A stretch of 64,000 nt of DNA from positions 563,354-627,353 of the forward strand of contig NZ_CP047901.1 in NCBI RefSeq assembly GCF_009936135.1, in the 5' to 3' direction. How positions within the stretch are numbered: position 1 is the first letter of the stretch; each line of letters opens with the position of its first letter. Of the stretch, positions 3,311-61,831 are shown one piece after another. Under the pieces are notes generated by a model. That model searched no databases, was not told where the DNA came from, and saw only the letters and a list, made by a program, of their open reading frames with translations. The DNA comes from Candidatus Chazhemtobacterium aquaticus. Its GTDB lineage: Bacteria > Patescibacteriota > Microgenomatia > UBA1400 > Chazhemtobacteraceae. A program made the translations under genes and the position numbers.

Positions 3311-4453
3311 ATGTCAAGCAAAAAAAAAGTCGCTGTATTCCATAACCTACCTGGCGGAGGTAGCTATCGAGTTATGCAACAGCTCATAGATCACCTTGTC
3401 GGTTTTGGTTATGAAGTAGACGTGTATTACACTACTGAAAAAGGACAGTCTCTAAAAAGATCATTAAACAACGTTTTACGTACTTATGAATACAAGCTGT
3501 CTATTCCTAGAAACTTAATTGTAAGGTTGATTTGGATACTTTGTGTTCTTCCCAATATTCATAGAGAAATCGCAAAAAAGATAAACAAAAAAGCATACAG
3601 GTTCGTTCTTATTAACCATGACTACCTTACAAAATCACCATATATCATAAAATTCATCAAACATAAAAGAGTGTACGTGTTACACGAGCCTCAGCGAGAG
3701 TTTTATGAACCAGCCGGTATACACGCACCCGATCTCAAAAGAAGAATCGCAAACATGCTCCGATATCCAATAAAAATTGTAGACGAAAACAATACAAAGA
3801 ATGCAGACTATGTTATTTGTAATTCAACATATTCAAGACAAATAATCAAAAAAATATATAAAAAAGACGCTATACTCCTGTACCCAGCTGTTGACAAAAA
3901 CATTTTCAAGCCGGACAGGTCAATTAAAAAGGAAAATCTAATAATTGTTGTTGGGACAATATCAAAGGTCAAGGGACAAGACTTTGTTATCACGTCGTTA
4001 CTCCCCATACTTGGTATATACAGGCTAATAATTTTTGGCGGAGGAAGCGTTGAAGAGAAAACAAGGATTAAAAAAATAACCAAAGAAAATACAAGTAAAT
4101 ATATAGAGATTATTGAAAATGGTAGTGATGTAAAACTAGTAAATTTGTATAGAAGGGCTAAAGTTGTCTGCATAGGAGCACACCGCGAACCCTTTGGGTT
4201 AACTTCCATTGAGGCACAGTCGACAGGTACTCCAGTAGTTGCAGTAAGAGAAGGAGGAGTGCCCGAAACAATAATTGATAACAAAACAGGTTATTTATCC
4301 AACAGAGATCCTGTGCAATTTCTGAGCAAAACCAAAAAAGCTCTCAACAATTACACTACACTAGGTAGGCAAGCACAGATTAACGTAAGACGCTTTAGTA
4401 CCAAAACACAAGAACGCAACTTTAAAAAATTTCTTCAAAAATATGTCGATTAA
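3311..4453 (+). CDS. Glycosyltransferase family 1 (GT4-like)
   Basis: The C-terminal segment EPFGLTSIEAQSTGTPVVAVREGGVPETI is the GT1 nucleotide-sugar-binding E-X7-E motif. Confidence 0.75.
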   Translation: MSSKKKVAVFHNLPGGGSYRVMQQLIDHLVGFGYEVDVYYTTEKGQSLKRSLNNVLRTYEYKLSIPRNLIVRLIWILCVLPNIHREIAKKINKKAYRFVLINHDYLTKSPYIIKFIKHKRVYVLHEPQREFYEPAGIHAPDLKRRIANMLRYPIKIVDENNTKNADYVICNSTYSRQIIKKIYKKDAILLYPAVDKNIFKPDRSIKKENLIIVVGTISKVKGQDFVITSLLPILGIYRLIIFGGGSVEEKTRIKKITKENTSKYIEIIENGSDVKLVNLYRRAKVVCIGAHREPFGLTSIEAQSTGTPVVAVREGGVPETIIDNKTGYLSNRDPVQFLSKTKKALNNYTTLGRQAQINVRRFSTKTQERNFKKFLQKYVD

Positions 4454-12712: not shown

Positions 12713-12784
12713 GCGGGATTAGTTCAACGGTAGAACATTTGCTTCCCAAGCAAAAAACACGGGTTCAATTCCCGTATCCCGCTC
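12713..12784 (+). tRNA. tRNA-Gly(CCC)
   Basis: Manual cloverleaf: acceptor GCGGGAT/ATCCCGC, D-arm GTTCAACGGTAGAAC, anticodon stem TTGC/GCAA with loop TTCCCAA (anticodon CCC), T-arm GGGTTCAATTCCC. Confidence 0.85.
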
Positions 12785-14280: not shown

Positions 14281-14399
14281 CTTTACTTCTCAATTAGTTG
14301 CTGGCTCAGCATAGCCTATACCCAAATACCCCGTCAAATACGCCAAGAAAACTAAACCTTGCAATGATCATAAACTCCATGCTAACGTATTGGCGTACT

Positions 14400-14580
14400 T
14401 GCAAATCAAACCTTATCTAGGTGAAGCAGGGTGCAATTCCCTCACTGTCGCGCAACGGTAATAGTCCGAGCCCTATCTAAGGATTTTTGTATACGTAGCT
14501 AAGCTCGCGGAAAGCTAACCAGTTGCTGAAAACAGTAATTGTTTTTTAACAAGTCCCGCTTAGAGGGACTTTTTTTTGTA
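14400..14580 (+). promoter_or_regulatory. Candidate cobalamin (B12) riboswitch-like leader with intrinsic terminator
   Basis: GGTGAAGCAGGGTGCAATTCCCTCACTGTCGCGCAACGGTAATAG matches conserved cobalamin-riboswitch core strings (GnGAA; GGUGnAAnUCC; CnGnCGCGCnnCGGUAA). Compare the E. coli btuB leader AGUGCGAAUCUGGAGCUGACGCGCAGCGGUAAGG. A partial B12-box-like AGTCCGAGCCC (14467-14477) follows. The element ends in a terminator hairpin and lies 30 nt before a DUF4430 gene. Confidence 0.45.
14551..14577 (+). terminator. Rho-independent terminator / attenuator hairpin
   Basis: AAGTCCCGCTTAGAGGGACTT is a perfect 7-8 bp stem with a GCTTAGA loop, followed by TTTTTTT. It sits 33 nt upstream of the ATG at 14611. 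Confidence 0.7.
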
Positions 14581-14610
14581 TATCTCCCGTCTTAGTCTGC
14601 GTTACCCACT

Positions 14611-15258
14611 ATGCAGACTCAACTAAAAAAAATTCTACCCTTACTTATAGTCCTTACCGGACTTACTCTCACTGGCGCCTTTACCTACGGACTGTCTCTT
14701 GTCTTACCTCCACTTGAATCAAACCCTGTTAAATCTATATCGTTAACCGAAACCGATCCAACACCTACACCAGCTCCCCAAGACTCCAAACTTGATCCTG
14801 ACTCAATCACCATTACTCCTACACCTACTCCTACCACTCTCTCTGCTAACGATACCAAGCCCACTTCTCAAATCACTCCAGCATCAACACCCATCCCAAC
14901 AAACCCTCCCACACCTACTCCTACTACCCCACCCACCACTACTCCAGCTCCGACCCCCCGACTTAAGCTCACCCTCCAGATTGATAACGATCCACCCTTC
15001 AATCTTGAACTCGATTCACCCAAAAATCACTGCCAGGTTTTAGAAGCCGCTTTAGCTCAAGGTAAATTAAGCTCTCTTAACCTTAAGTTTTTCCCCTCCC
15101 TCTCCTCCTACGCTGTTTATCAAATCAACGGTCTAGGAGACACCAACCAAGTCTGGTGGACCTACTCAGTTAACGGTCAACAACCACCCTATGGTTGTAG
15201 CCAAGTCATGGTCAATCAAGGCGATGTTATTCACTGGACCTACGCCGGTCCCCGTTAA
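14611..15258 (+). CDS. Secreted/anchored DUF4430 protein (transcobalamin/intrinsic-factor beta-domain-like) with a Pro/Thr-rich linker
   Basis: N-terminal signal/anchor (LPLLIVLTGLTLTGAF) and a PT-rich linker. The C-terminal about 100 aa (LKLTLQIDNDPPF...VLEAAL...AVYQINGLGD...VWWTYSVNGQQPPYGCSQVMVNQGDVIHWTY) fits the DUF4430 pattern (..Ing..W.Y.VNG...G.....GD.i.W.Y). Confidence 0.6.
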   Translation: MQTQLKKILPLLIVLTGLTLTGAFTYGLSLVLPPLESNPVKSISLTETDPTPTPAPQDSKLDPDSITITPTPTPTTLSANDTKPTSQITPASTPIPTNPPTPTPTTPPTTTPAPTPRLKLTLQIDNDPPFNLELDSPKNHCQVLEAALAQGKLSSLNLKFFPSLSSYAVYQINGLGDTNQVWWTYSVNGQQPPYGCSQVMVNQGDVIHWTYAGPR

Positions 15259-15264
15259 ACTTAT

Positions 15265-16575
15265 ATGAAACATCTCAAATCATTCATTATTATCTCAATC
15301 ACCCTATTTATCTCCCTTAGGGTAGGCTCATCCGTGTTCGCCAACACTACTGCCATCTCCGAGGCTCTAACATATCTTCAAAGCCAACAAGCAAGCACTG
15401 GTCAGATCAACGGTAGGGGAGGGGAGTCTGACTGGGCCGCTATCGCCTTTTCTCAAAACGGCCTTCCTGCCTCTTCTGTCAAATCAGGTGACACCTCTTT
15501 ATATGACTTCCTTCTCTCAGACCTACCTGCATCTGACTCAGCTGCCACCGTCTGGGAACGCAAAATCATTACCATTGTCTCTCTTAACCAAGACCCCACC
15601 GATTTTGCTGGACACAACTACCTAAGCTCCCTTGAGTCGCTTGCTCTAAATGGGCAACTAGGTGATGAGACTCTTCTAAACGATGACATTTTTGGGTTAC
15701 TTGCTCTTCTCTCTGCCTCATCGACCAACAATGAGTTGATTGAGTCGGTTCTTGATTTCCTCATTACTCACCAAGACCCCAGTGGTGGTTTTAGTTGGAC
15801 CACTAACACCTGCGACCGGTGTTCTCCTGACAGCAATGACACCGCAGCCGCTATCCAAGCCCTCCATCTGGCCAAAACATCAGGTTTTACCCATCCCCAA
15901 CTTGAAGACAGTCTCTCTCAAGCCCAAACATATTTACTAGAGTCACAAACAGAATCTGGCGGTTTTGCCTACGACCCCAATACGCCTACTCCCGATGGTG
16001 CCTCTACCTCCTGGGCTCTCATGGCATTAAATATGCTTGGTCTCTCTGACTCTTCTCAGGCTTTAAAGGCTACAGATTGGTTACTCTCACAACAACAAGC
16101 CGACGGTAGTTTCCCCTGGTCAGCTGAGTATGGCAGCGACCCCACTACAACCAGTCATGCCCTGATTGCTCTAAACTCGGCCTGGTGGACCAAGCAGTCT
16201 CCCGATCCTTCTCAAACACCTACTCCTACTTTGACACCAACACCAACTCCTACTCCCACCTCTACCACTACCCCAGAGCCTACAGCTACTCCTACGCCTA
16301 CTCCTACTCAAACACCTACATTAACACCCTCACCCACAACTACTCCACAACCCCTGCTTCTAGGCTCAAAAGACTCTAGAGCCCCTCTACCCACTCCATC
16401 ACCCGATCAACAGCCAGAAGATACATCCAATCAACCCCTTGTCACTAATGATACTAACGGGCTAAAATCTCCATCAGTATCTACCTCTATTTCATATATC
16501 CCCACCCTAGCTGTTATATTAGGCATCATTACTCTATTCGCTGTCATTAAAATTTACGAACGCAAAAAAACATGA
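15265..16575 (+). CDS. Surface-anchored prenyltransferase/squalene-cyclase-repeat (alpha/alpha-toroid) protein
   Basis: Signal peptide present. Repeated QW-type motifs (HQDPSGGFSW, ESQTESGGFAY, QQQADGSFPW; TAAAIQAL, TSWALMAL, TSHALIAL). A TPTPTPT linker leads to a C-terminal TM anchor (LAVILGIITLFAVIKIYERKKT). Confidence 0.6.
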   Translation: MKHLKSFIIISITLFISLRVGSSVFANTTAISEALTYLQSQQASTGQINGRGGESDWAAIAFSQNGLPASSVKSGDTSLYDFLLSDLPASDSAATVWERKIITIVSLNQDPTDFAGHNYLSSLESLALNGQLGDETLLNDDIFGLLALLSASSTNNELIESVLDFLITHQDPSGGFSWTTNTCDRCSPDSNDTAAAIQALHLAKTSGFTHPQLEDSLSQAQTYLLESQTESGGFAYDPNTPTPDGASTSWALMALNMLGLSDSSQALKATDWLLSQQQADGSFPWSAEYGSDPTTTSHALIALNSAWWTKQSPDPSQTPTPTLTPTPTPTPTSTTTPEPTATPTPTPTQTPTLTPSPTTTPQPLLLGSKDSRAPLPTPSPDQQPEDTSNQPLVTNDTNGLKSPSVSTSISYIPTLAVILGIITLFAVIKIYERKKT

Positions 16576-17147
16576 TTAACACCACCATTATCCTAGGCGG
16601 AATTATTTTAAGACTTGTTCCACACCTACCCAATTTCTCCTCCATCAGCGCTACTGCACTGTTTGCCGGTACCAAGCTACCTCGCCGTTACGCTTTTATC
16701 TTGCCTTTAGTCATAGCCGTCGTCTCTGACTATCTTCTCCTTTACGTTAATCCTTTCGCAATTCCCATCCTTGACTTGTCTGGCATCAAACCCATTTCAG
16801 CCATGTTTCATGCCACCACCCTTTATGTCTGGGGTAGCTTCTTACTTTCAGGCTTAATTGGTCTGTGGTTACGTCGCCACTTTAAAGCCAGTAACTTGGT
16901 TTTAGCCTCTCTGATTACCTCCCTTCAGTTCTTTCTGATTACCAACTTCGGTGTCTGGGCTGCCGGAGCATATAGTCGAGGAATTGATGGTCTTGTAACC
17001 AGTTACGCCATGGGTCTACCTTTCCTGCGTTGGACTATGTTAGGTGATCTTTTCTACAGTTCAGTTTTCTTCTCTATTCACGCCTTTGCTACTAGAACAA
17101 GCACCAAGGTTAGTCCAGCTACTCTAAAAGCTCGTGTCCAAAACTAG
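16572..17147 (+). CDS. Small polytopic membrane protein, ECF-transporter S-component-like (BioY-like N-terminal motif)
   Basis: 191 aa with 5-6 TM helices. LPNFSSISATALFAGTKLPRR parallels the BioY signature PVPITLQTLAVMLAGLILGPR. It is translationally coupled to the preceding gene by a 4-nt overlap. Confidence 0.35.
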   Translation: MINTTIILGGIILRLVPHLPNFSSISATALFAGTKLPRRYAFILPLVIAVVSDYLLLYVNPFAIPILDLSGIKPISAMFHATTLYVWGSFLLSGLIGLWLRRHFKASNLVLASLITSLQFFLITNFGVWAAGAYSRGIDGLVTSYAMGLPFLRWTMLGDLFYSSVFFSIHAFATRTSTKVSPATLKARVQN

Positions 17148-17844
17148 TTCCACTAAATTACTCACCCAGCTTGAATCAGTTGAGGGCTGGCTTCGTGACG
17201 ATGAGGCTATATTACTCAACCAACTAGCTGCTCAAGCCACTCCTGTCACCATCATTGTCGAGATTGGTTCCTGGAAGGGTAAATCAACCATCGCTCTTGC
17301 TCTATCTGCCAAGGTTCCAGTCTACGCCATCGATCCTCATACCGGCTCTCCTGAACACCATCAAAAAGGTAAATCTGTTGATACCTACAAGGACTTTTTA
17401 AACAACATCGAAAGCCATAACCTGACCAAAAAGGTTAAGCCTTTACGTCTCACCTCCAAAGAAGCTGCCAAGAAGATCAACAAGCCTATCAGTCTGCTCT
17501 TCATCGACGGCGATCACTCTTACCAAGCAGTTAGCCAAGACTTTAAAGATTACTACCCCAAGCTTCAACTGGGTGGCACCATCGCCTTTCATGACACCAT
17601 CAGCTGGCCCGGGCCTCGCAAACTTGTTACTCAACAGTTGTATTTTGGCAATCACTTTAAAAATATCCGTCTAGTTGGCTCCATTACCTACGCTCAAAAA
17701 ACCTTGTCTCTCACTATTATTGACAGACTTAAAAACTTATCCGCCTATATTCTCCGCTTACTACGAAATCTGATAGCCACCATTCCCATGCCCAGGTCCA
17801 TAAAGACTGTTCTCAAAGATATCTTCCAACGTCTTCAAGCTTAA
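17134..17844 (+). CDS. Class I SAM-dependent methyltransferase (Methyltransf_24/O-MTase-like)
   Basis: VEIGSWKGKSTIALA (motif I) and LLFIDGDHSYQAVSQDFKDY...GGTIAFHD are typical of CmcI/Methyltransf_24-type SAM methyltransferases. Confidence 0.55.
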   Translation: MSKTSSTKLLTQLESVEGWLRDDEAILLNQLAAQATPVTIIVEIGSWKGKSTIALALSAKVPVYAIDPHTGSPEHHQKGKSVDTYKDFLNNIESHNLTKKVKPLRLTSKEAAKKINKPISLLFIDGDHSYQAVSQDFKDYYPKLQLGGTIAFHDTISWPGPRKLVTQQLYFGNHFKNIRLVGSITYAQKTLSLTIIDRLKNLSAYILRLLRNLIATIPMPRSIKTVLKDIFQRLQA

Positions 17845-21086: not shown

Positions 21087-21169
21087 TGCCGAGGAGAGGA
21101 CTTGAACCTCCACGAGCTTGCGCTCACAGCGTCCTGAACGCTGCGTGTCTGCCATTCCACCACCTCGGC
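21087..21169 (-). tRNA. tRNA-Leu(CAG)
   Basis: Reverse complement is GCCGAGGTGGTGGAATGGCAGACACGCAGCGTTCAGGACGCTGTGAGCGCAAGCTCGTGGAGGTTCAAGTCCTCTCCTCGGCA. It has a long variable arm and anticodon loop TTCAGGA. Confidence 0.85.
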
Positions 21170-21206
21170 ATCAGGCATATTTTACCACTCAAAAAACTAT
21201 ATTGAT

Positions 21207-21863
21207 TTACTCCAACTCACTCATAAACTGGTTCACTCCAAAAGCCCAGGATCCATCAGATGGGGGAGTATATGTCCCCATTACTTCCTCAGCCTCGGTT
21301 CTGGATCCCTTGCTTAAGAACTTCTCCTTAAACTGGGGGGCAATCCTCTCTATCGCTTGCTCATATGACTCAAACCGGGTTATCTTCATTTCCCGACACT
21401 CATTTGCCTCACTATCATAATCCAAACACCATATGCCCCAACCCCAGCAGTTATATGAATCATCAGGAATCCGCTTACACAAATTCGACTCTTGCTGAGC
21501 AATAGCTACCAGCCATCTAAAATCAAAACCATTTTCATCTGATACCTTTACGATCAAATCAGCGTGTGGTTCAAGCGGGGATTCGTGTTTTGCAAGATAC
21601 TGCCGCAAAATCTCTGCTCTGGCATCAGCGGTTCCGATTGAGGTAATAAACTTGTTTTCAGGTGCTGGAATAGCTGCGTACATTAACTCAGGCACTCCAG
21701 TCGGTTGAATCTCGCTCACTAAAGGCGAAGCTAAGGGTACCGGCTTATCCATTTTTACATACATAAAAACAGAAGCCATTAACAAAGCTCCCGAGACACC
21801 GCTCCACACAGGTAGCAACCACAATTTCTTAAACATATCGTACGTCTCTACCCATACTCGCAA
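21207..21863 (-). CDS. Membrane-anchored lysozyme-like peptidoglycan hydrolase (SLT/GH23- or GH73-like)
   Basis: N-terminal TM anchor. FDFRWLVAIAQQESNL...NCWGWGIW resembles lytic-transglycosylase/glucosaminidase catalytic motifs (A.A.QES...G.G). The family assignment is approximate. Confidence 0.4.
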   Translation of the reverse strand: MRVWVETYDMFKKLWLLPVWSGVSGALLMASVFMYVKMDKPVPLASPLVSEIQPTGVPELMYAAIPAPENKFITSIGTADARAEILRQYLAKHESPLEPHADLIVKVSDENGFDFRWLVAIAQQESNLCKRIPDDSYNCWGWGIWCLDYDSEANECREMKITRFESYEQAIERIAPQFKEKFLSKGSRTEAEEVMGTYTPPSDGSWAFGVNQFMSELE

Positions 21864-21886
21864 GATTTAAGCTCATTGTCAACTTG

Positions 21887-21961
21887 CGCGCCTGGAGGGA
21901 CTCGAACCCCCATAAAACCCTGTTCCGAAGACAGGTGCCTTATCCATTAGGCCACAGGCGC
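21887..21961 (-). tRNA. tRNA-Arg(TCG)
   Basis: Reverse complement is GCGCCTGTGGCCTAATGGATAAGGCACCTGTCTTCGGAACAGGG...GGGGGTTCGAGTCCCTCCAGGCGC. Anticodon loop CTTCGGA. Confidence 0.8.
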
Positions 21962-22335
21962 ATATTTTAATTTCCAACTGTTATTCTCATGAGCTGTCTT
22001 TCTTCTATGGCAATTCGCACACCGGACCTCACACTTTCCAATCTCAGTCGAAATTGTTTTTAAAGACAAGCCTCCCTTTACCATATCACTAAGCGTGCAA
22101 CGCTTGTGCTTTCTATCTTTATGATCAAACTCTAAAACAGTTATATCCTTCTCACCACAATCAACACAAGGATGCGTTGATAAATATGTACCAACATACT
22201 GACGCGCCTCTTCTCTTACAACTACGTTTCTTCTTCGTGCTTTTTCAAGATAATATTTTCGATTCTCAACGTAATGCTGCCTTACATACTCTCTTGAACA
22301 CGCGGTGCAATATGTTGCACGAGTTTTATTTCTTC
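21962..22335 (-). pseudogene. 5'-truncated paralog of the HNH zinc-finger endonuclease gene at 24285..24734
   Basis: The minus-strand frame reads ...TRATYCTACSREYVRQHYVENRKYY...HPCVDCGEKDITVLEFDHKDRK...EIGKCEVRCANCHRRKTAHEN. This parallels the intact paralog (CKTCLRERGKSYYRKNRER...CKDCGQ...MDFDHRDE...CDIVCANCHRIRTY) but has no start codon and lacks the first ~30 codons. An IS200-family left end abuts it, and its 3' end runs into tRNA-Arg. Confidence 0.45.
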
Positions 22336-22339
22336 CTTA

Positions 22340-22920
22340 CAGGAAACCCCGCATGGAATAGCGTCACACGAGAGTAGTTAGCGTATGGAATGCGGGGATG
22401 AATGAGCATATCAGGCTGACCTGATATGCTGACTGCATGAGAAAGAGAAGCCTTAATCACTGTGCCTATCAACACCAGTACCATCTAGTCTGGGGAACAA
22501 AATACAGACGGAAATACATCAAGTCGTATGTCAAGGAAGAGTTGCTGTTAGAGTTACACCAACTGATCAAGAAATATCCCACACTGTATCTTTACGCTGT
22601 CAACACGGGTAGTGATCACATTCATCTACAAATTGAGATTTCACCAGATATATCAGTAGCCAGGGTGGTTCAAAGGATTAAGACATATACCAGCTTTCGA
22701 TTAAAGAAAAAATTTAAGTTCATCAGGAAGATATATCTGGACTCTGGTATCTGGAGTGTGGGATATTTCTCATCAACAGTGGGTTTAAACGAGACTTACC
22801 TTCCAGTTAAACTCGGATACATTTTTTCTTTTCTGACAGCGCGGACATGTCTTAAACACAACTGTTTTAATTATATCAATGTACACTTCGAAAATTAAAT
22901 ATGATTTCGAAGTATAGAAA
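22340..22920 (+). mobile_element. IS200/IS605-family insertion sequence (tnpA only) with subterminal hairpins
   Basis: The tnpA ORF is flanked by imperfect palindromes typical of the family. Left end: CCCCGCAT...ATGCGGGG (22347-22397) and AGCATATCAGG-ctga-CCTGATATGCT (22405-22430). Right end: ACTTCGAAA-11nt-TTTCGAAGT (22885-22913). Confidence 0.6.
22437..22898 (+). CDS. tnpA: IS200-like Y1 (HUH) transposase TnpA
   Basis: YHLVWGTKYRRKYI and the HuH motif SDHIHLQIEI. Catalytic Tyr region SVGYFSSTVG. At 153 aa it has the right size for IS200 TnpA. Confidence 0.85.
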   Translation: MRKRSLNHCAYQHQYHLVWGTKYRRKYIKSYVKEELLLELHQLIKKYPTLYLYAVNTGSDHIHLQIEISPDISVARVVQRIKTYTSFRLKKKFKFIRKIYLDSGIWSVGYFSSTVGLNETYLPVKLGYIFSFLTARTCLKHNCFNYINVHFEN

Positions 22921-22944
22921 CTAAACTCAGATAACGCATTCGTG

Positions 22945-23016
22945 TGCGCCCAGGAGGACTCGAACCTCCAACCAATTGCTTAAGAGGCAACTGCTCTGCC
23001 ATTGAGCTATGGGCGC
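22945..23016 (-). tRNA. tRNA-Lys(CTT)
   Basis: Reverse complement is GCGCCCATAGCTCAATGGCAGAGCAGTTGCCTCTTAAGCAATTGGTTGGAGGTTCGAGTCCTCCTGGGCGCA. Anticodon loop CTCTTAA. Confidence 0.85.
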
Positions 23017-23055
23017 ATAACCCATATTATATCAACCCTATATATAAAAGTAGGG

Positions 23056-23130
23056 GGTGGCTGACGAGAATTGAACCCGCGACCTCCGCTTCCACAGAGC
23101 GGCGCTCTAACCGACTGAGCTACAGCCACC
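23056..23130 (-). tRNA. tRNA-His(GTG) with encoded G-1
   Basis: Reverse complement is G-GTGGCTGTAGCTCAGTCGGTTAGAGCGCCGCTCTGTGGAAGCGGAGGTCGCGGGTTCAATTCTCGTCAGCCAC-C. Anticodon loop CTGTGGA. The extra 5' G pairs with discriminator C. Confidence 0.8.
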
Positions 23131-23164
23131 ACGTTTTCAACCATTTTACTTGAGTTTGGTTGAG

Positions 23165-23238
23165 CGCGCCCAGCAGGATTCGAACCTGCGACCTACTGCT
23201 TAGAAGGCAGTTGCTCTATCCGGCTGAGCTATGGGCGC
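23165..23238 (-). tRNA. tRNA-Arg(TCT)
   Basis: Reverse complement is GCGCCCATAGCTCAGCCGGATAGAGCAACTGCCTTCTAAGCAGTAGGTCGCAGGTTCGAATCCTGCTGGGCGCG. Anticodon loop CTTCTAA. Confidence 0.85.
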
Positions 23239-23239
23239 A

Positions 23240-23313
23240 TGGAGCGGGAGAGGGGGATCGAACCCCCGTCTTCTGCTTGGAAGGCAGATGCTCTACCATT
23301 GAGCTACTCCCGC
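23240..23313 (-). tRNA. tRNA-Gly(TCC), CCA encoded
   Basis: Reverse complement is GCGGGAGTAGCTCAATGGTAGAGCATCTGCCTTCCAAGCAGAAGACGGGGGTTCGATCCCCCTCTCCCGCTCCA. Anticodon loop CTTCCAA. Confidence 0.85.
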
Positions 23314-23327
23314 ATAATATGTTCCAG

Positions 23328-23400
23328 TCGGGGTGCCCGGTCTCGAACCGGGGACCTCTGCGTCCCAAACGCAGCACTCTACCATCTGAGCTACACCCCG
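23328..23400 (-). tRNA. tRNA-Pro(TGG)
   Basis: Reverse complement is CGGGGTGTAGCTCAGATGGTAGAGTGCTGCGTTTGGGACGCAGAGGTCCCCGGTTCGAGACCGGGCACCCCGA. Anticodon loop TTTGGGA. Confidence 0.85.
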
Positions 23401-23411
23401 TTGTCAATTAG

Positions 23412-23497
23412 TGCCGAGGGCGGGAATCGAACCCGCACGAGGGTTGAACCTCAAGGGATTTTAAGTCCCTCGCGTCTGCCTATTCCGCCACCTCGGC
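23412..23497 (-). tRNA. tRNA-Leu(TAA)
   Basis: Reverse complement is GCCGAGGTGGCGGAATAGGCAGACGCGAGGGACTTAAAATCCCTTGAGGTTCAACCCTCGTGCGGGTTCGATTCCCGCCCTCGGCA. It has a long variable arm and anticodon loop CTTAAAA. Confidence 0.85.
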
Positions 23498-23535
23498 GCC
23501 AGGCTTAATTTTACCACTTATCACCCGATTTGACC

Positions 23536-23766
23536 TTAAGGCAATACGTTTCTCAAAAAATAGAAGATTCCATCCACTATCGTTCTAAAGATGGGTACTG
23601 AGGCTGGAACAAAGATAATCAATAGTAAAATCCAGATAAAATTACGCTTAATCAAATCTACTAACATCAATACAATTCCCACGAAAATAAGCAAGGCGAT
23701 CAAACCTTGTAACTCCATCGGAAAAAGGGATATAAAATCCTGCCACAACATCATTATCTGATCCAT
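23536..23766 (-). CDS. Small two-helix membrane protein (hypothetical)
   Basis: A 76-aa ORF lying between the two opposed tRNA blocks, with two clear hydrophobic helices. Confidence 0.35.
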   Translation of the reverse strand: MDQIMMLWQDFISLFPMELQGLIALLIFVGIVLMLVDLIKRNFIWILLLIIFVPASVPIFRTIVDGIFYFLRNVLP

Positions 23767-23838
23767 AACGCCATTTTAACATCTCAAAAACCCAAGCCTA
23801 GCTCATCACCCTCGGTCTTGGTATAATATCAGCTGTTA

Positions 23839-23922
23839 GGGCAGGTGGCGGAACTGGCAGACGCGCAGCCTTGAGGAGGCTGTGGGCTTATGCCCGTGGA
23901 GGTTCAAGTCCTCTCCTGCCCA
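23839..23922 (+). tRNA. tRNA-Leu(GAG)
   Basis: GGGCAGGTGGCGGAACTGGCAGACGCGCAGCCTTGAGGAGGCTGTGGGCTTATGCCCGTGGAGGTTCAAGTCCTCTCCTGCCCA. It has a long variable arm and anticodon loop TTGAGGA. Confidence 0.85.
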
Positions 23923-23965
23923 CACAAAAGCCGCGTCATCACGCGGCCTCTTTGTAAAAACACCT

Positions 23966-24051
23966 GCCGAGGTGGCGGAATGGCAGACGCGCTGGATTTA
24001 GGATCCAGTGGGTGTAAACCCGTGGAGGTTCAAGTCCTCTCCTCGGCACCA
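23966..24051 (+). tRNA. tRNA-Leu(TAG), CCA encoded
   Basis: GCCGAGGTGGCGGAATGGCAGACGCGCTGGATTTAGGATCCAGTGGGTGTAAACCCGTGGAGGTTCAAGTCCTCTCCTCGGCACCA. Anticodon loop TTTAGGA. Confidence 0.85.
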
Positions 24052-24059
24052 ACAACCAA

Positions 24060-24133
24060 GGACGGTTGGCGCAGTTGGTTAGCGCGTCTCTTTTACACAG
24101 AGAAGGCCGGGGGTTCGAATCCCTCACCGTCCA
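24060..24133 (+). tRNA. tRNA-Val(TAC)
   Basis: GGACGGTTGGCGCAGTTGGTTAGCGCGTCTCTTTTACACAGAGAAGGCCGGGGGTTCGAATCCCTCACCGTCCA. Anticodon loop TTTACAC. Confidence 0.85.
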
Positions 24134-24166
24134 CCGGAAGATAAAGATGATAAAATAATTACACTT

Positions 24167-24239
24167 GCCAAGCTAGCCAAGGTGGTCACGGCGCGTGTCT
24201 GAAAAACACGAGATTGAGGTTCGACTCCTCAGCTTGGCA
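24167..24239 (+). tRNA. tRNA-Phe(GAA)
   Basis: GCCAAGCTAGCCAAGGTGGTCACGGCGCGTGTCTGAAAAACACGAGATTGAGGTTCGACTCCTCAGCTTGGCA. Anticodon loop CTGAAAA. The D-arm is atypical, with a short stem. Confidence 0.7.
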
Positions 24240-24284
24240 CAAAATACTTGAACTAGTCGCAACCCAAGGGATAACATAATTGTA

Positions 24285-24734
24285 ATGAAGACATGCTCCA
24301 GATGTCACCTTAGTAAGGATTTATCCGAATTCTATTTACGCAAAACCGGCAGGAAAGCAGGGCAATATTACAACCACTGTAAAACGTGTCTCAGAGAGAG
24401 GGGAAAATCTTATTACAGGAAAAACAGAGAGAGGCAGCTCTTCCTATCAAACCAAAGAAGAAAAAAATACGTAATTCTCAAAAAGAAGCTAGTATATAGT
24501 CTCAAAAACAAGCCGTGTAAAGATTGTGGCCAAAGATTTCCTCACTACGTTATGGACTTCGACCATCGCGATGAGACAACCAAGATCGGAAATATCGCCC
24601 ACTTAGTCAGCCAAAACTACTACTCAAAAACAAAACTACTTGCAGAAATCAACAAATGTGACATCGTCTGCGCTAATTGCCATCGCATAAGAACCTACAA
24701 ACACAAAATACGCACCATAAACAAAGTTTATTGA
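24285..24734 (+). CDS. HNH endonuclease with N-terminal zinc-ribbon (homing-endonuclease-like)
   Basis: CSRCH...CKTC Cys pairs at the N-terminus. The HNH core CKDCGQRFPHYVMDFDHRDE...NIAHLVS...EINKCDIVCANCH provides the His-Asn-His triad and Zn-binding Cys residues. Confidence 0.7.
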   Translation: MKTCSRCHLSKDLSEFYLRKTGRKAGQYYNHCKTCLRERGKSYYRKNRERQLFLSNQRRKKYVILKKKLVYSLKNKPCKDCGQRFPHYVMDFDHRDETTKIGNIAHLVSQNYYSKTKLLAEINKCDIVCANCHRIRTYKHKIRTINKVY

Positions 24735-24750
24735 TATAATAATAGAACCT

Positions 24751-24826
<76 letters not shown>

Positions 24827-24832
24827 CACATT

Positions 24833-25705
24833 ATGACGGAACTTTTTGACCAGTACGACTATACTCACCAACGCATTCAAAACAGTCTGGTGTTAGCCTA
24901 TCTCAAGGAAGGGTCAGTAAATGCTATTCTCCCTCAGTTTCCTGAGGTGCCTGAACAAACTGCCCACAACTGGCTTGATGCCTACGACATAGTTAAACTC
25001 CAGGGTCGCAAACCCAATCCATTAGGTTCTGTCCTATACTTCCTGTCTCAATGGGTAGCCGCCAAAGATATTCCTCTAGAACGTTGGTACCGCGAATACA
25101 CGCCTCATCGTATTCGAGAAGTTCTCTCCACACCTAGTCTCCATCGAGTTGTTGATCACATTCGCCGGCTTACCACCAGGCTTTCCGCTACTGCCCTCAT
25201 TATCACTCCTCAAGACGCTCCAGAGCATATCTTAGTTGGTCATGACATTACCACCCCCAATCCTCAAGTAGGTAAAACCTTCGGCTCATTATCTCTACCC
25301 ATGACCTATTCCAATACCGGTGAGCCGCCCCAACTCTCAATTAAACGAGTTCTTCAGCAAGAGGTTTTTTCCAATCTTGTTTTAAGCAAAGACTTTCCAG
25401 ACTGGCTTATACCCGATGAGCTACAACCCTTCATGCACGTAGCCGTCGCTGACGTTGATGTGGCTGCATATCACCTTCAGATCCCCTGGGAGCTTACTGA
25501 TAGTTTTAGTAGTCCCAAGCTTGATGGACTTAAACTTACTCCGCTAGACCAACTTCTTAAGCACCATCCGCTGGATACCTCTATACGATCAGGTGTAGTT
25601 GAGATAGCCAGCGGACATTCATCCTATATCAACCAACCTCAAACAGAACCCATCACCTGGGCTCTATCACGCTTAAACGAAGAAATACTGCTCGCTCGCC
25701 TCTAA
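24833..25705 (+). CDS. Hypothetical protein (orphan). The ORF-track start at 24782 was trimmed because it overlaps tRNA-Gly.
   Basis: The ORF is open from MTELFDQYDY... No recognisable motif. Its composition resembles the other GC-richer orphans in the window. Confidence 0.45.
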   Translation: MTELFDQYDYTHQRIQNSLVLAYLKEGSVNAILPQFPEVPEQTAHNWLDAYDIVKLQGRKPNPLGSVLYFLSQWVAAKDIPLERWYREYTPHRIREVLSTPSLHRVVDHIRRLTTRLSATALIITPQDAPEHILVGHDITTPNPQVGKTFGSLSLPMTYSNTGEPPQLSIKRVLQQEVFSNLVLSKDFPDWLIPDELQPFMHVAVADVDVAAYHLQIPWELTDSFSSPKLDGLKLTPLDQLLKHHPLDTSIRSGVVEIASGHSSYINQPQTEPITWALSRLNEEILLARL

Positions 25706-25735
25706 GAGCCTCAAAATGTTAAAATATCCCAATCT

Positions 25736-25809
25736 TGCCGGATCGTCTAATGGTAGGACACCACCCTTTGAAGGTGGTTATCTAGGTTCGAACCCTAGTC
25801 CGGCAACCA
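25736..25809 (+). tRNA. tRNA-Gln(TTG), CCA encoded
   Basis: TGCCGGATCGTCTAATGGTAGGACACCACCCTTTGAAGGTGGTTATCTAGGTTCGAACCCTAGTCCGGCAACCA. Anticodon loop CTTTGAA. Confidence 0.8.
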
Positions 25810-44627: not shown

Positions 44628-46334
44628 TTACTCATCGGCCAAAGTGCTGGTGTCACCTACCTCCAGTCCCAACTCCTTAGCTCGAAGCATTCTTCTCACA
44701 ATTTTGCCCGATCTTGTTTTTGGTAGCTTATCAATAAACTCAATCTCTCTGGGGTAAGCATGGCCAGCCAAGTGCTTTTTAACATACACCGACAGCTCTT
44801 CTTTTAATTTCTCACTTGGAGTCACTCCAGGCTTTAACACAACAAACGCCTTGATTATCTGACCTCTGACTTCGTCCGGCTTGCCAATTACTCCTGCTTC
44901 AATTACTGCCTCATGCTCAATTAATGCCGACTCAACCTCAAAAGGACCAACCCGCTCTCCTGATGTCTTAATCACATCATCGTCCCTACCCACAAACCAA
45001 AAGTATCCATCCTCATCCATATATGCTCTATCACCGCTGATGAACCACTTGCCCTCAAAATAACTATCAAACTTCTTAGGTCGCCTCCATATAGTCTTCA
45101 TCATCGAGGGCCATCCTCGCTTCAATGCCAAACTACCCTCAGTCATTGGCCCCAACTCTTTTCCCTTATCATCCACAATAGCTGCCACATTTCCCGGTAC
45201 TGGTTTACCCATAGATCCAACCTTTATATCCATTGCTGGGAAGTTGGCAATCGAGATGGCTCCCGTTTCTGTTTGAAACCAGGTGTCATGAAACAAAATC
45301 TTTAATACCCTCCTACCCCATCTAATTGGATCGGGATTGAGTGGCTCGCCTACACTGCAGGCATGTCTCACTTTAGACAAGTCATATTTATCAGGCAACT
45401 CGTCACCAGCCGCTTGCAACAATCTAATTGCTGTTGGCGCTGTATACCACACACTCACCCCCCAATCCTGCAAAATCTTATACCAACTCTCTGCATCAAA
45501 TCTGCCGTTATACACCACTGCCGAGGCACCCAAACTCCATGAGCCCAAAATCCCATAAGCTACCCCAGTTACCCAGCCTGGATCAGCCGTACACCAGTAC
45601 ACATCATCAGGCTGCAGATCCAGCACGTACTTAGCCGTCATCTCCTCTTGTAACAAAGCCTCGTGCTTGTGCACCACCCCCTTAGGCTTGCCAGTTGATC
45701 CCGAGGTGTAAAGCATAAAGGCCGGATCATCTAGCTCCATCTCTCGTACCTCACCCTCGTCATCATACTGCTCCAATACCTTTTCTAAATCGTCACTCAA
45801 AATAATTTTTTCAAGGTTAGGTAAGTCTTTCTTGACCTTTTGAACTCGAGGTAGTAACTCTTTGTTAGTTACCAGAACCTTAGCATTACTACTTCCAATC
45901 CGATCTACCAAAGCCTGTTCCTGGAAAGCACTAAACAAAGTTCCAGCCACCGCCCCTCGTTTCAAAGTGCCTAAAAAGCCATAGTACATCTCCGGCACTC
46001 TTGGTAAAAAGAAAAAGACTCGATCACCACGATCAACCCCCAAGTCCTTAAGATAACTGGCAAACTGGCCGCTTAATCGCTCCATCTCAGCGAAGGTAAA
46101 TTTTCTCTCTGTCCAATCCTCGCCGATCCAATAAAGAGCTACCTTATTTTTCAGCTCATCCCGAGCATGTCTGCTTATCGCATTGTGAACAGCATTAAAC
46201 TTGCCTCCCTTAAAAAACTCCAGATCTTTTTTAACCTCATCCCAACTAAAATTCTTATACCCCTTCTCATAGTTCTCCAAGTTTGGAGTCTTGGCTAACT
46301 TTTTGTTCCCTACCTTTATTACATCTACTTTCAT
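44628..46334 (-). CDS. AMP-forming acyl-CoA synthetase (acetyl-CoA synthetase-like)
   Basis: AMP-binding motif MLYTSGSTGKPKGVVH. Also WYTAPTAIR, GEPLNP, SGDRAYMDEDGYFWFVGRDDDVIKTSGERVGPFEVE and the C-terminal PKTRSGKIVRR. Its size (568 aa) and N-terminal region are like short ACS enzymes. Confidence 0.7.
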   Translation of the reverse strand: MKVDVIKVGNKKLAKTPNLENYEKGYKNFSWDEVKKDLEFFKGGKFNAVHNAISRHARDELKNKVALYWIGEDWTERKFTFAEMERLSGQFASYLKDLGVDRGDRVFFFLPRVPEMYYGFLGTLKRGAVAGTLFSAFQEQALVDRIGSSNAKVLVTNKELLPRVQKVKKDLPNLEKIILSDDLEKVLEQYDDEGEVREMELDDPAFMLYTSGSTGKPKGVVHKHEALLQEEMTAKYVLDLQPDDVYWCTADPGWVTGVAYGILGSWSLGASAVVYNGRFDAESWYKILQDWGVSVWYTAPTAIRLLQAAGDELPDKYDLSKVRHACSVGEPLNPDPIRWGRRVLKILFHDTWFQTETGAISIANFPAMDIKVGSMGKPVPGNVAAIVDDKGKELGPMTEGSLALKRGWPSMMKTIWRRPKKFDSYFEGKWFISGDRAYMDEDGYFWFVGRDDDVIKTSGERVGPFEVESALIEHEAVIEAGVIGKPDEVRGQIIKAFVVLKPGVTPSEKLKEELSVYVKKHLAGHAYPREIEFIDKLPKTRSGKIVRRMLRAKELGLEVGDTSTLADE

Positions 46335-51625: not shown

Positions 51626-52696
51626 TTACTTTAATTTACTCTTGAAATAATCTACCCAGGGAATCGGCGCTGGATCAATCTTATGAAGTAAAGCTAAATA
51701 AAAGGAGACAAATCCACCAAAAGCTATCGTCTCCCACACCTGAGCCAGCGCCCCACTTGTCTCGGCCTTAATCCTAGTCACCCCATATCCTTGTTTAGTG
51801 ATTACCTCCTCAGTTAAAAGCAGACGCTTACTGATTACCGGGTCATACAGCTCACTATCAAATATCACGAAATGAAATACTTTTCTTAACTCCTTAGGGA
51901 AACTTAAACCTTCAAGTAAATGATGGTTTAACTCTGGTAAATCAAACCTAGCCGCAAAGGTCTTCGCATTCTCATTTAATTGGTTTTTAAATACATGAAT
52001 CGCACCGGTCAAGTGCTCGGCTCCAATCATAATCACCGCCTTTTCCTCTACTATCTCGGCTAACCGTTTAGCTGGATTTTCTTTAAACGGCCTATCCTTA
52101 CCCAAGATCTGTTGCTGGCTGCGCAAGTTGGCCAATACCTGAGTTACCAACTCAGACTCAATCTCAACGTGACCACAACGAGACAACACCATTAACACCG
52201 CCATCACGTTCATCCCAATGGCCATCCTTGGCTGTTTACTCGGGTTATATTCCTCATTCAGTTTCAAAACCGGCCAGTTATTTTTCTCTGCCACCTCCAC
52301 CAAACTACCCCCTCCAGCAATCACTACCACACAGGACTTTCTGGCCTCAGCTTCCTTGGCTGCATGAAGTACCTCCTCCGTACCACCAGAATAGCTTGAT
52401 AAGATCACCAAACTTCTTTCATCTACATAAGCAGGCAAATGGTAGTTATTTACAATCTCAAGTGGCAACATCAGCTTATCATTGCACATACTCTTAACCA
52501 CTCTAGCTCCCAAAGCTGATCCGCCCATACCCACAACTACCAAGTTATCAACCAGCCTACACGCCTTGCCTATTTTTAACTCCGTTAAGCCCTCCCACAA
52601 CCCACCAATTTGCTGAGGCAGTGTCAACACCGAGTCATACACCCGACTGCTATCCAGTTTGTAACTGCTTTCTTGATCTAGTTTATGTTTAAACAT
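51626..52696 (-). CDS. SIS-domain sugar isomerase (bifunctional phosphoglucose/phosphomannose isomerase type)
   Basis: Two SIS-like segments (VVVGMGGSALGARVV; ILSSYSGGTEEV), as in archaeal-type PGI/PMI. Confidence 0.6.
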   Translation of the reverse strand: MFKHKLDQESSYKLDSSRVYDSVLTLPQQIGGLWEGLTELKIGKACRLVDNLVVVGMGGSALGARVVKSMCNDKLMLPLEIVNNYHLPAYVDERSLVILSSYSGGTEEVLHAAKEAEARKSCVVVIAGGGSLVEVAEKNNWPVLKLNEEYNPSKQPRMAIGMNVMAVLMVLSRCGHVEIESELVTQVLANLRSQQQILGKDRPFKENPAKRLAEIVEEKAVIMIGAEHLTGAIHVFKNQLNENAKTFAARFDLPELNHHLLEGLSFPKELRKVFHFVIFDSELYDPVISKRLLLTEEVITKQGYGVTRIKAETSGALAQVWETIAFGGFVSFYLALLHKIDPAPIPWVDYFKSKLK

Positions 52697-54077
52697 GGCC
52701 GCCTAATTTTTTTAACATTGAAAGTACCTGTCCTCTTCGTCTCTCCAGTTTACCAACTTCGTATGCTTCTATGTTAAATCTTACCACTGGTTCGGTTCCA
52801 GAAGGACGCAGGTTAAACCAAAAATCTCCATACTCTACTGTAATTCCATCCGTTCTTCTTATCTGCTTTGGTTTACCCAAGCTTGATTGATCGGAAGTTA
52901 TCACCTGAAGCACCATCTCTATAAATCTGTCCCTATCATCCACTTTTACTGACATCTCCTCTGCCTTTTCATAAATACGAAACTCCTCCACCTGCTTACT
53001 TACTGGTCGATCATCACTGGAAATAGCCATCAGCAATATCAATGTGCCAACCAATGCCGAGTCGTTATAGTTATTCTCCTTAAAGTAAAAATGTCCTGAG
53101 TGTTCCCCGGCAAATATAGCTCGATTCTTTCTCATCATTGCCTTAATCAACGAGTGGCCTACTGGTGCCAGTAAAGGAGTTCCTCCATACTCTGATATCT
53201 TTTTAGGCACAATCTGGCTCATCACGCTGGTATACAACATCTTAGGTCTAGTTGTATATTTTCTATGTTCCAATAAATACTTAGCTAAGTAGGCGGTCAT
53301 CAAAGATCCCTCAACGACTCTCCCTTTCTCATCTACCATAATCACTCTGTCTGCATCCCCATCATAAGAAAAACCGCAGTCAGCCTTCTCCTCTCTCACC
53401 CGTTTTGACAATCCCTTCAGCGTGGCTGATAACAAAGGGTTGGGTAAGTGATTGGGGAAACTGCCATCGGGCTCAAAAAACATCTTCACCGCTTTAATCT
53501 GTGGCAAACGATTTAATGCCTCCACCAACTCTATCCCCGCAACACTGTTACCAGCATCAAACACCACCTTCATTGGTCTTATCGCTCTTGGGTTAACCAA
53601 TGAAAAAACATGATCCATCCACCTATTCATAATCTGTTTACTCACCACCTTGCCCTTAACCTTCTCCTTAAGGTGTATCTCACCCATCATCCCCTTAGCC
53701 AATTGCTCCAAATCACTCTTCTCGGTAGCTCTTCCCTTGTCTTTAGCAATGATTAACCCGTTGTACTCTTTTGGATTGTGAGATGAAGACACAATACAAG
53801 CCAAATCTACTTTTAGTTCCTTAGCAGCAAAATAGTTCATTGGTGTGGTGATCATCCCCAGATCAAACACCTTAACTCCAGCCCTCACAAAACCATCTAT
53901 CAAAGCCCTACTCAACCACGGTCCAGACAATCTCATATCTCTCCCCACAGATACCAATTTTGGATGATACATCTCACTTAAAACCAGCGCCAACCTGTAC
54001 ATCACTCCTTCATCAAGCTGCTCAGGATATATCCCCCTTATATCATTGTCCCTAAATATCTCTCTTTCTACTGGCAT
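52689..54077 (-). CDS. Phosphomannomutase/phosphoglucomutase (alpha-D-phosphohexomutase)
   Basis: Active-site Ser loop SSHNPKEYNG, metal-binding FSYDGDADR, and the sugar-binding GEHSGHF. Confidence 0.9.
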   Translation of the reverse strand: MPVEREIFRDNDIRGIYPEQLDEGVMYRLALVLSEMYHPKLVSVGRDMRLSGPWLSRALIDGFVRAGVKVFDLGMITTPMNYFAAKELKVDLACIVSSSHNPKEYNGLIIAKDKGRATEKSDLEQLAKGMMGEIHLKEKVKGKVVSKQIMNRWMDHVFSLVNPRAIRPMKVVFDAGNSVAGIELVEALNRLPQIKAVKMFFEPDGSFPNHLPNPLLSATLKGLSKRVREEKADCGFSYDGDADRVIMVDEKGRVVEGSLMTAYLAKYLLEHRKYTTRPKMLYTSVMSQIVPKKISEYGGTPLLAPVGHSLIKAMMRKNRAIFAGEHSGHFYFKENNYNDSALVGTLILLMAISSDDRPVSKQVEEFRIYEKAEEMSVKVDDRDRFIEMVLQVITSDQSSLGKPKQIRRTDGITVEYGDFWFNLRPSGTEPVVRFNIEAYEVGKLERRRGQVLSMLKKLGGHV

Positions 54078-61668: not shown

Positions 61669-61740
61669 TGACCCCACGGGGAATCGAACCCCGATTACCA
61701 GGATGAAAACCTGGCGTCCTAGCCGTTAGACGATGGGGCC
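61669..61740 (-). tRNA. tRNA-Glu(TTC)
   Basis: Reverse complement is GGCCCCATCGTCTAACGGCTAGGACGCCAGGTTTTCATCCTGGTAATCGGGGTTCGATTCCCCGTGGGGTCA. Anticodon loop TTTTCAT. Confidence 0.8.
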
Positions 61741-61756
61741 TCGGAAGTAAAAAGAG

Positions 61757-61831
61757 TGGGTCCACTGGGATTCGAACCCAGGACACCCTGCTTAAAAGGC
61801 AGGTGCTCTAACCAGGCTGAGCTATGGACCC
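61757..61831 (-). tRNA. tRNA-Lys(TTT)
   Basis: Reverse complement is GGGTCCATAGCTCAGCCTGGTTAGAGCACCTGCCTTTTAAGCAGGGTGTCCTGGGTTCGAATCCCAGTGGACCCA. Anticodon loop CTTTTAA. Confidence 0.85.

Follow-up and report, generated by a model that had tools for sequence, protein, structure and literature searches.

A predicted class II cobalamin riboswitch in the leader of a putative vitamin B12 uptake operon of a Patescibacteria-like bacterium

Background

Cobalamin riboswitches signal through a contact between loops L5 and L13 (PMC5028336, PMC7367189). Among them, class II (Cbl-II) is curated as the Rfam family RF01689, AdoCbl-II (AdoCbl, adenosylcobalamin; formerly "AdoCbl-variant"), a short class without the P2 arm, the P7-P11 extension and the GCCACUG loop (PMC7367189); P, J and L stand here for paired regions, junctions and loops. 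The class includes Cbl-IIa, the env8 type selective for hydroxocobalamin and methylcobalamin (HyCbl/MeCbl), whose bulged J1/3 forms a T-loop contacting the ligand pocket (PMC7367189), and Cbl-IIb, which binds AdoCbl and has a short mismatched or paired J1/3 and typically a short hairpin extension on P6 (PMC7367189, Fig. 1). The L5-L13 pairing of env8 has two unpaired purines ahead of a terminal U-A pair and requires that L13 be presented in a stem-loop (PMC5028336). Here we present an analysis of a 64,000-nt stretch of Candidatus Chazhemtobacterium aquaticus (contig NZ_CP047901.1, positions 563,354 to 627,353; the whole stretch is called the window below), in which positions 14410-14483, in the 5' leader of a four-gene operon, are, as judged from the sequence, the ligand-binding domain of a class II cobalamin riboswitch (RF01689).

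On the protein side, bacterial SLBB proteins are predicted B12 scavengers that cooperate with an alpha/alpha-toroid (Burroughs, Iyer & Aravind 2007; PMC1796856), and in transcobalamin the toroid and SLBB domains together bind B12 (PMC1796856). Our literature search found no paper on DUF6580, the family of the third gene of the operon, and no relevant paper on cobalamin riboswitches in Patescibacteria or the Candidate Phyla Radiation.

Identification of the aptamer

Both strands of the whole 64-kb window were scanned with cmscan against 4227 Rfam families. Above the gathering scores are 17 transfer RNAs (tRNAs) and, as the single non-tRNA match, RF01689 at 14410-14483 on the plus strand, with 41.3 bits (gathering score 36.5) and an E-value of 1.9e-6, or 1.5e-8 when a 501-nt region is scanned alone. 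The match is full-length, spanning model positions 1-81. Other families of the cobalamin clan, RF00174 included, score lower at the same positions and are removed by clan competition. The parts of the aptamer are as follows.

14410..14483, plus strand: Cbl-II aptamer, based on the cmscan match to RF01689, on covariation in P4 and P6 and on the P1/P3 closing helix in relatives
14411-15/14478-82, plus strand: P1, CCUUA/UAAGG
U14416 C14417/U14476 C14477, plus strand: J1/3, a 2x2 internal loop UC/UC, with 2 nt per strand between P1 and P3
14418-21/14472-75, plus strand: P3, UAGG/CCUA
14428-31/14439-42, plus strand: P4 with T-loop L4, AGGG-UGCAAUU-CCCU, where L4 (UGCAAUU) is a GGUGNAAUUCC motif
14446-47/14453-54, plus strand: P5, U14446 and G14447 with C14453 and A14454
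14448-52, plus strand: L5, UCGCG
14456-58/14466-68, plus strand: P6, CGG-UAAUAGU-CCG, with a 7-nt loop
J6/3, plus strand: AGC, read from the sequence
14463-73, plus strand: B12-box core AGUCCGAGCCC, read from the sequence

The aptamer is 74 nt long, without a P2 arm or a P7-P11 extension, and the conserved AGUCNGA core and the four-way junction with P4 (capped by the T-loop L4) and P6 are present. On the whole, the aptamer class is already curated, and the element is an ordinary Cbl-II member in an uncultivated lineage.

An earlier note on this DNA, made from its letters, had seen a likeness to the cobalamin-riboswitch core in this leader. The significant covariance-model match, above the gathering score, bears this out as more than chance, and the string which the note quoted is exactly present (14420 GGTGAAGCAGGGTGCAATTCCCTCACTGTCGCGCAACGGTAATAGTCCGAGCCC 14473), as is its B12-box-like AGTCCGAGCCC at 14463-14473. 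The element is real although the note drew it too narrowly, since the aptamer occupies 14410-14483, with an expression platform that extends as far as about 14619. The note was also correct that neither a GCCACUG element nor a canonical long B12 box can be placed, which is explained by membership of the short Cbl-II class; its surmise of a variant class agrees with the lack of P2, P7-P11 and a GCCACUG L5, but that variant is already curated as RF01689.

Related leaders and covariation of the helices

Relatives of the locus were collected by three routes: the DUF6580 protein served as query against genomes, the aptamer core as query against metagenomes, and relatives of gene 1 (the DUF4430 gene that opens the operon) were traced on their contigs. 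The genome scan gives 65 loci, the closest of which (at most 60% identity) are from Patescibacteria, Saccharibacteria, Curtissbacteria and Levybacteria metagenome-assembled genomes (MAGs), and the metagenome scan, with the L5 triplet left free, gives 42 loci. RF01689 lies about 2.1 kb upstream of DUF6580, before the DUF4430 gene, in seven loci (L003, L005, L007, L010, L012, L013 and L015), and 0.85 kb upstream of DUF6580 in three (L017, L019 and L020). The whole leader architecture is common to five distinct leader types (L109, L111, L113, L118 and L122), in which gene 1 is 39-69% identical; all five pass the RF01689 threshold, with 38.5-42.7 bits. Together with the window these make up the six leaders compared below. 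In addition, a near-identical copy of the window is found on a 52.6-kb contig (L068).

Two other loci deserve a remark. In a Saccharimonadia MAG (L014), positions 3824-3908, 2.1 kb upstream of DUF6580, match RF01482 (AdoCbl) and not RF01689, and therefore different classes of cobalamin aptamer serve the same operon in related lineages. Locus L001 carries two matches to the core pattern CTGTNNNGCAAC, one per strand (L5 GCC on plus, CTG on minus), both below the Rfam gathering score; it is labelled Gammaproteobacteria yet encodes the closest DUF6580 relative (60%), and may be a mis-binned Patescibacteria contig.

Among 33 related aptamers, RNAalifold on a plain MAFFT alignment recovers only P4 and P6, the P1/P3 flanks being length-variable and unaligned. 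Double changes occur in 4 of the 7 pairs of these two helices, and the middle pair of P6 is GC in 15 sequences, UA in 12 and CG in 6. P1/P3 was tested sequence by sequence by constrained folding with the core blocked, where a closing helix means at least 6 pairs. Of 45 related aptamers, 37 have such a helix, built from unrelated sequences (for example CCUUA..UAGG, UUACGUG, AAGUAAAUAUAG and CCAGCGG), and it is continuous over 7 bp in L118 and L122. For the window itself, 7 of 100 flank shuffles fold equally well.

The predicted L5-L13 kissing loop and P13

Downstream of the aptamer follow a linker and a short hairpin whose loop is complementary to L5.

14484..14501, plus strand: J1/13 linker, whose 3' part (14493-14501) would also form the 5' side of two proposed helices, the anti-sequestor and the antiterminator
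14502..14516, plus strand: P13 regulatory hairpin, stem AGCU/AGCU (14502-05/14513-16), loop L13 CGCGGAA (14506-12)

The implied pairs in the window are G14452-C14506, C14451-G14507, G14450-C14508, C14449-G14509 and U14448-A14512, with G14510 and A14511 left unpaired (UCGCG x CGCG[GA]A). This geometry, that is the unpaired purines, the terminal U-A pair and an L13 presented in a stem-loop, agrees with env8 (PMC5028336). The register that we use, UNNNG x CN'[bulge]N'N'[bulge]A, comes from a comparison of the ACC, GCC and CGC classes of L5, each of which goes with its own L13: UGCCG with CG[A]GCA, UACCG with CG[A/G]GUA, and UCGCG with CGC..A. The register of the Rfam consensus, CCU x AGG, does not fit the collected sequences.

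To examine the contact, we searched by pattern in the first downstream hairpin for a loop complementary to L5 on a stem of 3 or more pairs. An L13 hairpin of the proper class is found in 39 of 40 GCC, 12 of 14 CGC and 2 of 2 ACC sequences, and one of the wrong class in only 1 of 40 and 1 of 14; the sequences are not phylogenetically independent, and these figures are counts and not probabilities. They comprise 18 (GCC), 8 (CGC) and 2 (ACC) distinct P13 hairpins, the stems of which covary as well (CCUU/AAGG, GUUC/GAAC, CUCU/AGAG, CCC/GGG, AGCU/AGCU, GGCU/GGCU, GCC/GGC and others). The class-wise co-variation therefore supports the L5-L13 kissing loop, a predicted contact, together with P13 as the coupling element of the riboswitch.

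These observations also bear on the suspicion that the element is a chance resemblance or a decayed, non-functional relic, which might be drawn from its marginal Rfam score and from a fold z-score of -0.9 for the whole region, a value that is not significant. Such an origin is disfavoured, and we hold it to be extremely improbable: the element keeps its place ahead of this operon even in relatives whose gene 1 has diverged to 39-69% identity, its helices covary, its L5 and L13 classes co-vary, and the expression platform taken alone has a z-score of -2.64.

An extended P13 (GUAGCU 14495-500 x AGUUGC 14521-26), which would compete with the hairpin that follows, was considered and dropped. The pairing is possible in the window and in L113, L118 has a mismatch, and no computed fold has the extension.

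The expression platform

Between the promoter region and the start codon of gene 1, the following features frame the aptamer and P13 on the plus strand.

14359..14388, plus strand: tentative sigma-70-like promoter, -35 TTGCAA (14359-14364), an 18-nt spacer ending in TGc, -10 TAACGT (14383-14388)
14520..14547, plus strand: hairpin B (CAGUUGCUG AAAA CAGUAAUUG), 14520-41 followed by U6, a conserved structured spacer nested in the alternative long-range helices
14551..14577, plus strand: intrinsic terminator T, stem AAGUCCC/GGGACUU (14551-57/14565-71), loop GCUUAGA, U8 at 14570-77
14554-63, plus strand: 5' half of the terminator, UCCCGCUUAG, complementary to the P13 strand 14499-14511, the proposed antiterminator
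14585-95, plus strand: post-terminator near-repeat UCCCGUCUUAG, a near-copy of the 5' half of the terminator
14585..14602, plus strand: 3' strand of the anti-sequestor (UCCCGUCUUAG-U-CUGCGU), pairing with 14493-14511
14594..14619, plus strand: start-codon sequestor hairpin, AGUCUGCGU (14594-14602) x AUGCAGACU (14611-14619), 9 bp with all three AUG bases paired

The promoter remains tentative. Both L111 and L109 keep its elements (TTGCAA or TTGCAT with TGnTAACGT), and L113 has a comparable TTGCAC...TGCTATTTT; our consensus promoter scan did not report 14359-14388, as the -10 hexamer matches the consensus at only 3 of 6 positions.

Terminator-like sites number 3 against 0.2 expected. Hairpin B is kept in all six leaders, with changes from G.U to A-U, and the U-run after it is found only in the window and its closest relatives; as a general regulated terminator, hairpin B (14520-41 with U6) is ruled out, there being no U-run in L113, L118 and L122. 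The strong U8 terminator that stands between the riboswitch and gene 1 is retained in all six. Its 5' half is complementary to the P13 strand in five of the six leaders. In RNA ending at the loop of this terminator, the minimum free energy (MFE) fold is the antiterminator CUAAGC (14499-04) x GCUUAG (14558-63), at -16.5 kcal/mol versus -12.7 kcal/mol with P13 locked, and the antiterminator is the MFE fold of the nascent RNA in both the window and L111. In the GCC-class Saccharibacteria leaders, a 14-nt P13 segment CCUUCGAGCAAGGG is complementary at 12 of 14 positions, as read from the sequences, to the 5' half of the terminator CCUCCGCUUGAAGG.

For the full leader, the free fold is the anti-sequestor with an open AUG (-38.9 kcal/mol), whereas locking P13 gives the fold of P13, hairpin B, terminator and sequestor (-37.7 kcal/mol), and the two are nearly isoenergetic. 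With P13 locked, the sequestor forms in all six leaders; with the AUG kept open, the anti-sequestor is the best fold in all six. Both pairings are maintained in L118 with different sequences, GGUUGCUCGU/AUGAGCACC for the sequestor and AAACGCAGCAA with UUGCUCGUUU for the anti-sequestor. GUAUAC (14489-14494) and GUAUAU (14578-14583), which flank the block of P13, hairpin B and terminator and pair in the P13-locked fold, are kept in L111 and not in L109, L113, L118 and L122, and this flank is probably incidental.

Few genes of the window have a recognisable Shine-Dalgarno sequence (30 nt upstream of 24 open reading frame starts), GAGG or GGAG being seen only at a few starts, for example those of 44628-46334 and 52689-54077. 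This suggests a lineage with little Shine-Dalgarno-led initiation. Because most genes of the window lack the motif, occlusion of the start codon is plausible as a way to control initiation.

The earlier note had further described an intrinsic-terminator-like hairpin with AGTCC in its 5' arm, and such a hairpin is indeed found at 14551-14571, followed by a T-run. From the shared pentamer came a different mechanism, in which AGUCC of the unliganded aptamer (14463-67) would pair with GGACU in the 3' arm of the terminator, and ligand would sequester AGUCC and so bring about termination. The pentamer does occur both in the B12 box and in the 5' arm of the window's terminator, so that the 3' arm could pair with either. 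However, the pairing would be long-range, about 100 nt, in competition with the adjacent 5' arm; it is absent from every computed fold; and signalling in known cobalamin riboswitches runs through L5 and L13 (PMC5028336, PMC7367189). Nor is the pentamer conserved in the terminator arms, which read AUCCCG in L113, AUCCCGC in L122 and AUCCCUC in L118, and AGUCC is invariant aptamer core anyway. We therefore regard this antiterminator as very unlikely.

Proposed mechanism

The features above may be joined into one mechanism built on the L5-L13 contact. Cobalamin bound in the four-way junction P3-P6 would let L5 (14448-52) kiss L13 (14506-12), the step supported by covariation, and the kissing loop would lock P13. 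Without ligand, the 5' strand of P13 together with L13 could base-pair with 14554-63, the terminator's 5' half, and there would be no termination at 14570-77; in the read-through RNA the same P13 strand would then pair with the near-repeat at 14585-14602, leaving the AUG open. With ligand, neither pairing would be made, the terminator (14551-14577) and the 9-bp hairpin burying the AUG (14594-14619) would form, and the operon would be off. In sum, B12 would shut off the genes for its own uptake, which is how riboswitches of the cobalamin clan usually act on uptake modules. The downstream region may thus control both transcription and translation.

Several points weigh against this account. The margin of RF01689 over its threshold is about 5 bits, and the model fits P1-J1/3-P3 badly, the alignment there showing deletions and non-canonical pairs, because a short symmetric loop stands where the model expects a J1/3 bulge of about 7 nt. 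P13, hairpin B and the terminator can coexist, and the terminator state (-23.6 kcal/mol) is about 7 kcal/mol more stable at equilibrium than the antiterminator (-16.5 kcal/mol), and therefore antitermination would have to be kinetic. The register of the antiterminator varies between relatives, and none was found in L118. The anti-sequestor is the free MFE fold in only three of the six leaders, lying 2.8-4.7 kcal/mol above it in the other three. The support for the platform comes from six leader types, the window and five relatives, several of them closely related, and amounts to a handful of compensatory events, too few for statistics.

Some of these points lead to a translational-only control, in which the same aptamer and kissing loop act on the start codon, with the terminator at 14551-77 either leaking constitutively as an attenuator or marking the end of a short riboswitch-only transcript. 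It would agree with the mutual compatibility of P13, hairpin B and terminator, which jointly are the MFE fold of the platform, with the short, register-variable antiterminator pairing missing from L118, and with the sequestor and anti-sequestor being the better conserved of the two switches. On the other hand, it leaves aside the retention of the strong terminator in all six leaders, the complementarity of its 5' half to the P13 strand in five of them, the antiterminator as nascent MFE fold in the window and L111, and the 12 of 14 complementary positions in the GCC class. On balance we consider translational control alone unlikely.

Overall, we judge it probable that the leader as a whole is a Cbl-II riboswitch in which L5-L13 locks P13, the terminator and the start codon give the read-out, and a B12-uptake operon is repressed. 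We are more reserved about a further proposal, perhaps somewhat more doubtful than not, that the decoy is duplicated, so that one ligand-locked P13 sets both termination and start-codon access, and that the split SLBB and toroid proteins with DUF6580 form a B12 acquisition system of Patescibacteria.

The putatively regulated operon and its surroundings

Four genes follow the leader.

14611..15258, plus strand: gene 1, a membrane-anchored or secreted protein with an anchor at the N-terminus, a Pro/Thr linker and, at the C-terminus, a DUF4430 domain (transcobalamin-like SLBB; Pfam PF14478, E 3.9e-11)
15265..16575, plus strand: gene 2, a secreted alpha/alpha-toroid (prenyltransferase/squalene-cyclase repeat; PF00432, PF13243, PF13249), a Pro/Thr linker and a C-terminal anchor
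16572..17147, plus strand: gene 3, a DUF6580 membrane protein with a fold like the S-component of energy-coupling factor (ECF) transporters, a putative B12 transporter
17134..17844, plus strand: gene 4, a Methyltransf_24 (TylF-like) class I methyltransferase (Pfam PF13578, E 3.9e-20)

The predicted model of DUF6580 is confident and S-component-like, closest to BtuM, to which the sequence identity is about 12%; H18, R14, N21 and D159 are invariant in 44 homologues. In MAGs of Lysobacterales and Pseudomonadota, DUF6580 genes also come immediately after classical RF00174 riboswitches (L032, 5644-5847; L035, 396-605). Cobalamin binding, and with it repression of the downstream genes, is predicted on the basis of this gene context, namely DUF4430/SLBB, the toroid and the BtuM-like DUF6580. 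In our analysis the most likely task of the operon is to scavenge and import vitamin B12 for the Patescibacteria-like bacterium that carries it.

The linkers of genes 1 and 2 are long, Pro/Thr-rich and of low complexity (for example TPTPTPTPTPTSTTTPEPTATPTPTPTQTPT), with the anchor N-terminal in gene 1 and C-terminal in gene 2, an arrangement suggestive of two domains anchored at the cell surface by flexible stalks. Gene 4 overlaps the end of the DUF6580 gene and is kept as the fourth and last gene of the operon in L108, L111 and L113.

As for the need of B12, a DUF4430 gene in L120 (583-4708) follows nrdR, a class II (B12-dependent) ribonucleotide reductase and a PduO-type adenosyltransferase, which hints that AdoCbl-dependent nucleotide reduction is the B12 need of these organisms. 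No B12-dependent enzyme is found among the ten largest open reading frames of the window. The 17 tRNA genes of the window are mostly densely clustered: 14 within about 4.7 kb on both strands (21087-25806), 2 at 61669-61831 and 1 at 12713-12783.

Significance

The aptamer itself adds little to a curated family. What is of interest is that small-genome, Patescibacteria-like bacteria, which depend on others for cofactors, would sense B12 with a minimal 74-nt Cbl-II aptamer and place a dedicated module of surface binding and import under it. The association with riboswitches, here with Cbl-II and in other phyla with the classical RF00174, gives DUF6580 a testable role in B12 transport. The leader is meanwhile a compact candidate for studying how a terminator and start-codon occlusion can serve as the read-out of a kissing loop where a Shine-Dalgarno sequence is missing. 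The leads are thus a possible dual read-out on a duplicated decoy and the functional assignment of DUF6580; if the former is true, a single kissing loop sets both intrinsic termination and start-codon access in an organism largely devoid of Shine-Dalgarno sequences.

Comparison with known systems

Compared with Cbl-II (RF01689; env8HyCbl, PDB 4FRN), the window has the same four-way junction P3-P6, an L4 T-loop of the GGUGNAAUUCC type, the AGUCNGA core and a short loop-closed P6, and it likewise lacks the P2 arm and P7-P11. As in env8, the kissing loop joins L5 to an L13 held in a stem-loop, with two unpaired purines before the terminal U-A. The differences lie in the closing helix, the kissing register and the read-out. 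The bulged J1/3 of Cbl-IIa is not found in the window: unlike the bulge of about 7 nt in the RF01689 model, J1/3 is a symmetric 2x2 loop (fully paired in relatives), and cmscan deletes model positions in J1/3-P3. Where the RF01689 consensus pairs CCU with AGG, a ribosome-binding site, the window has a palindromic CGCG core in L5/L13, and instead of the consensus read-out through a ribosome-binding site in L13 there are a terminator and a start-codon hairpin. The host also differs from that of the env8 type, being Patescibacteria-like and mostly without Shine-Dalgarno sequences.

Within the class, the short mismatched J1/3 is like that of Cbl-IIb, whereas the plain 7-nt loop of P6 is unlike Cbl-IIb and like Cbl-IIa; a P6 insertion of the Cbl-IIb kind is present in some related metagenomic aptamers (L075, L079 and L107). 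As read from its letters, the window mixes Cbl-IIa and Cbl-IIb features, and therefore the form of cobalamin sensed is not deducible from the sequence.

With Cbl-I (RF00174, btuB type) the element shares the clan, the core junction, the principle of the L5-L13 contact and the B12 transport genes as targets. It differs in lacking the P2 arm, the P7-P11 extension and a GCCACUG L5, and RF00174 scores lower; the element is not of the btuB type. Finally, the genes of the operon encode an SLBB/DUF4430 protein, a toroid and an S-component-like protein, as do the transcobalamin-like SLBB and toroid proteins and BtuM, and unlike in the known SLBB and toroid surface proteins, the SLBB and toroid domains of the window are encoded by two separate genes.

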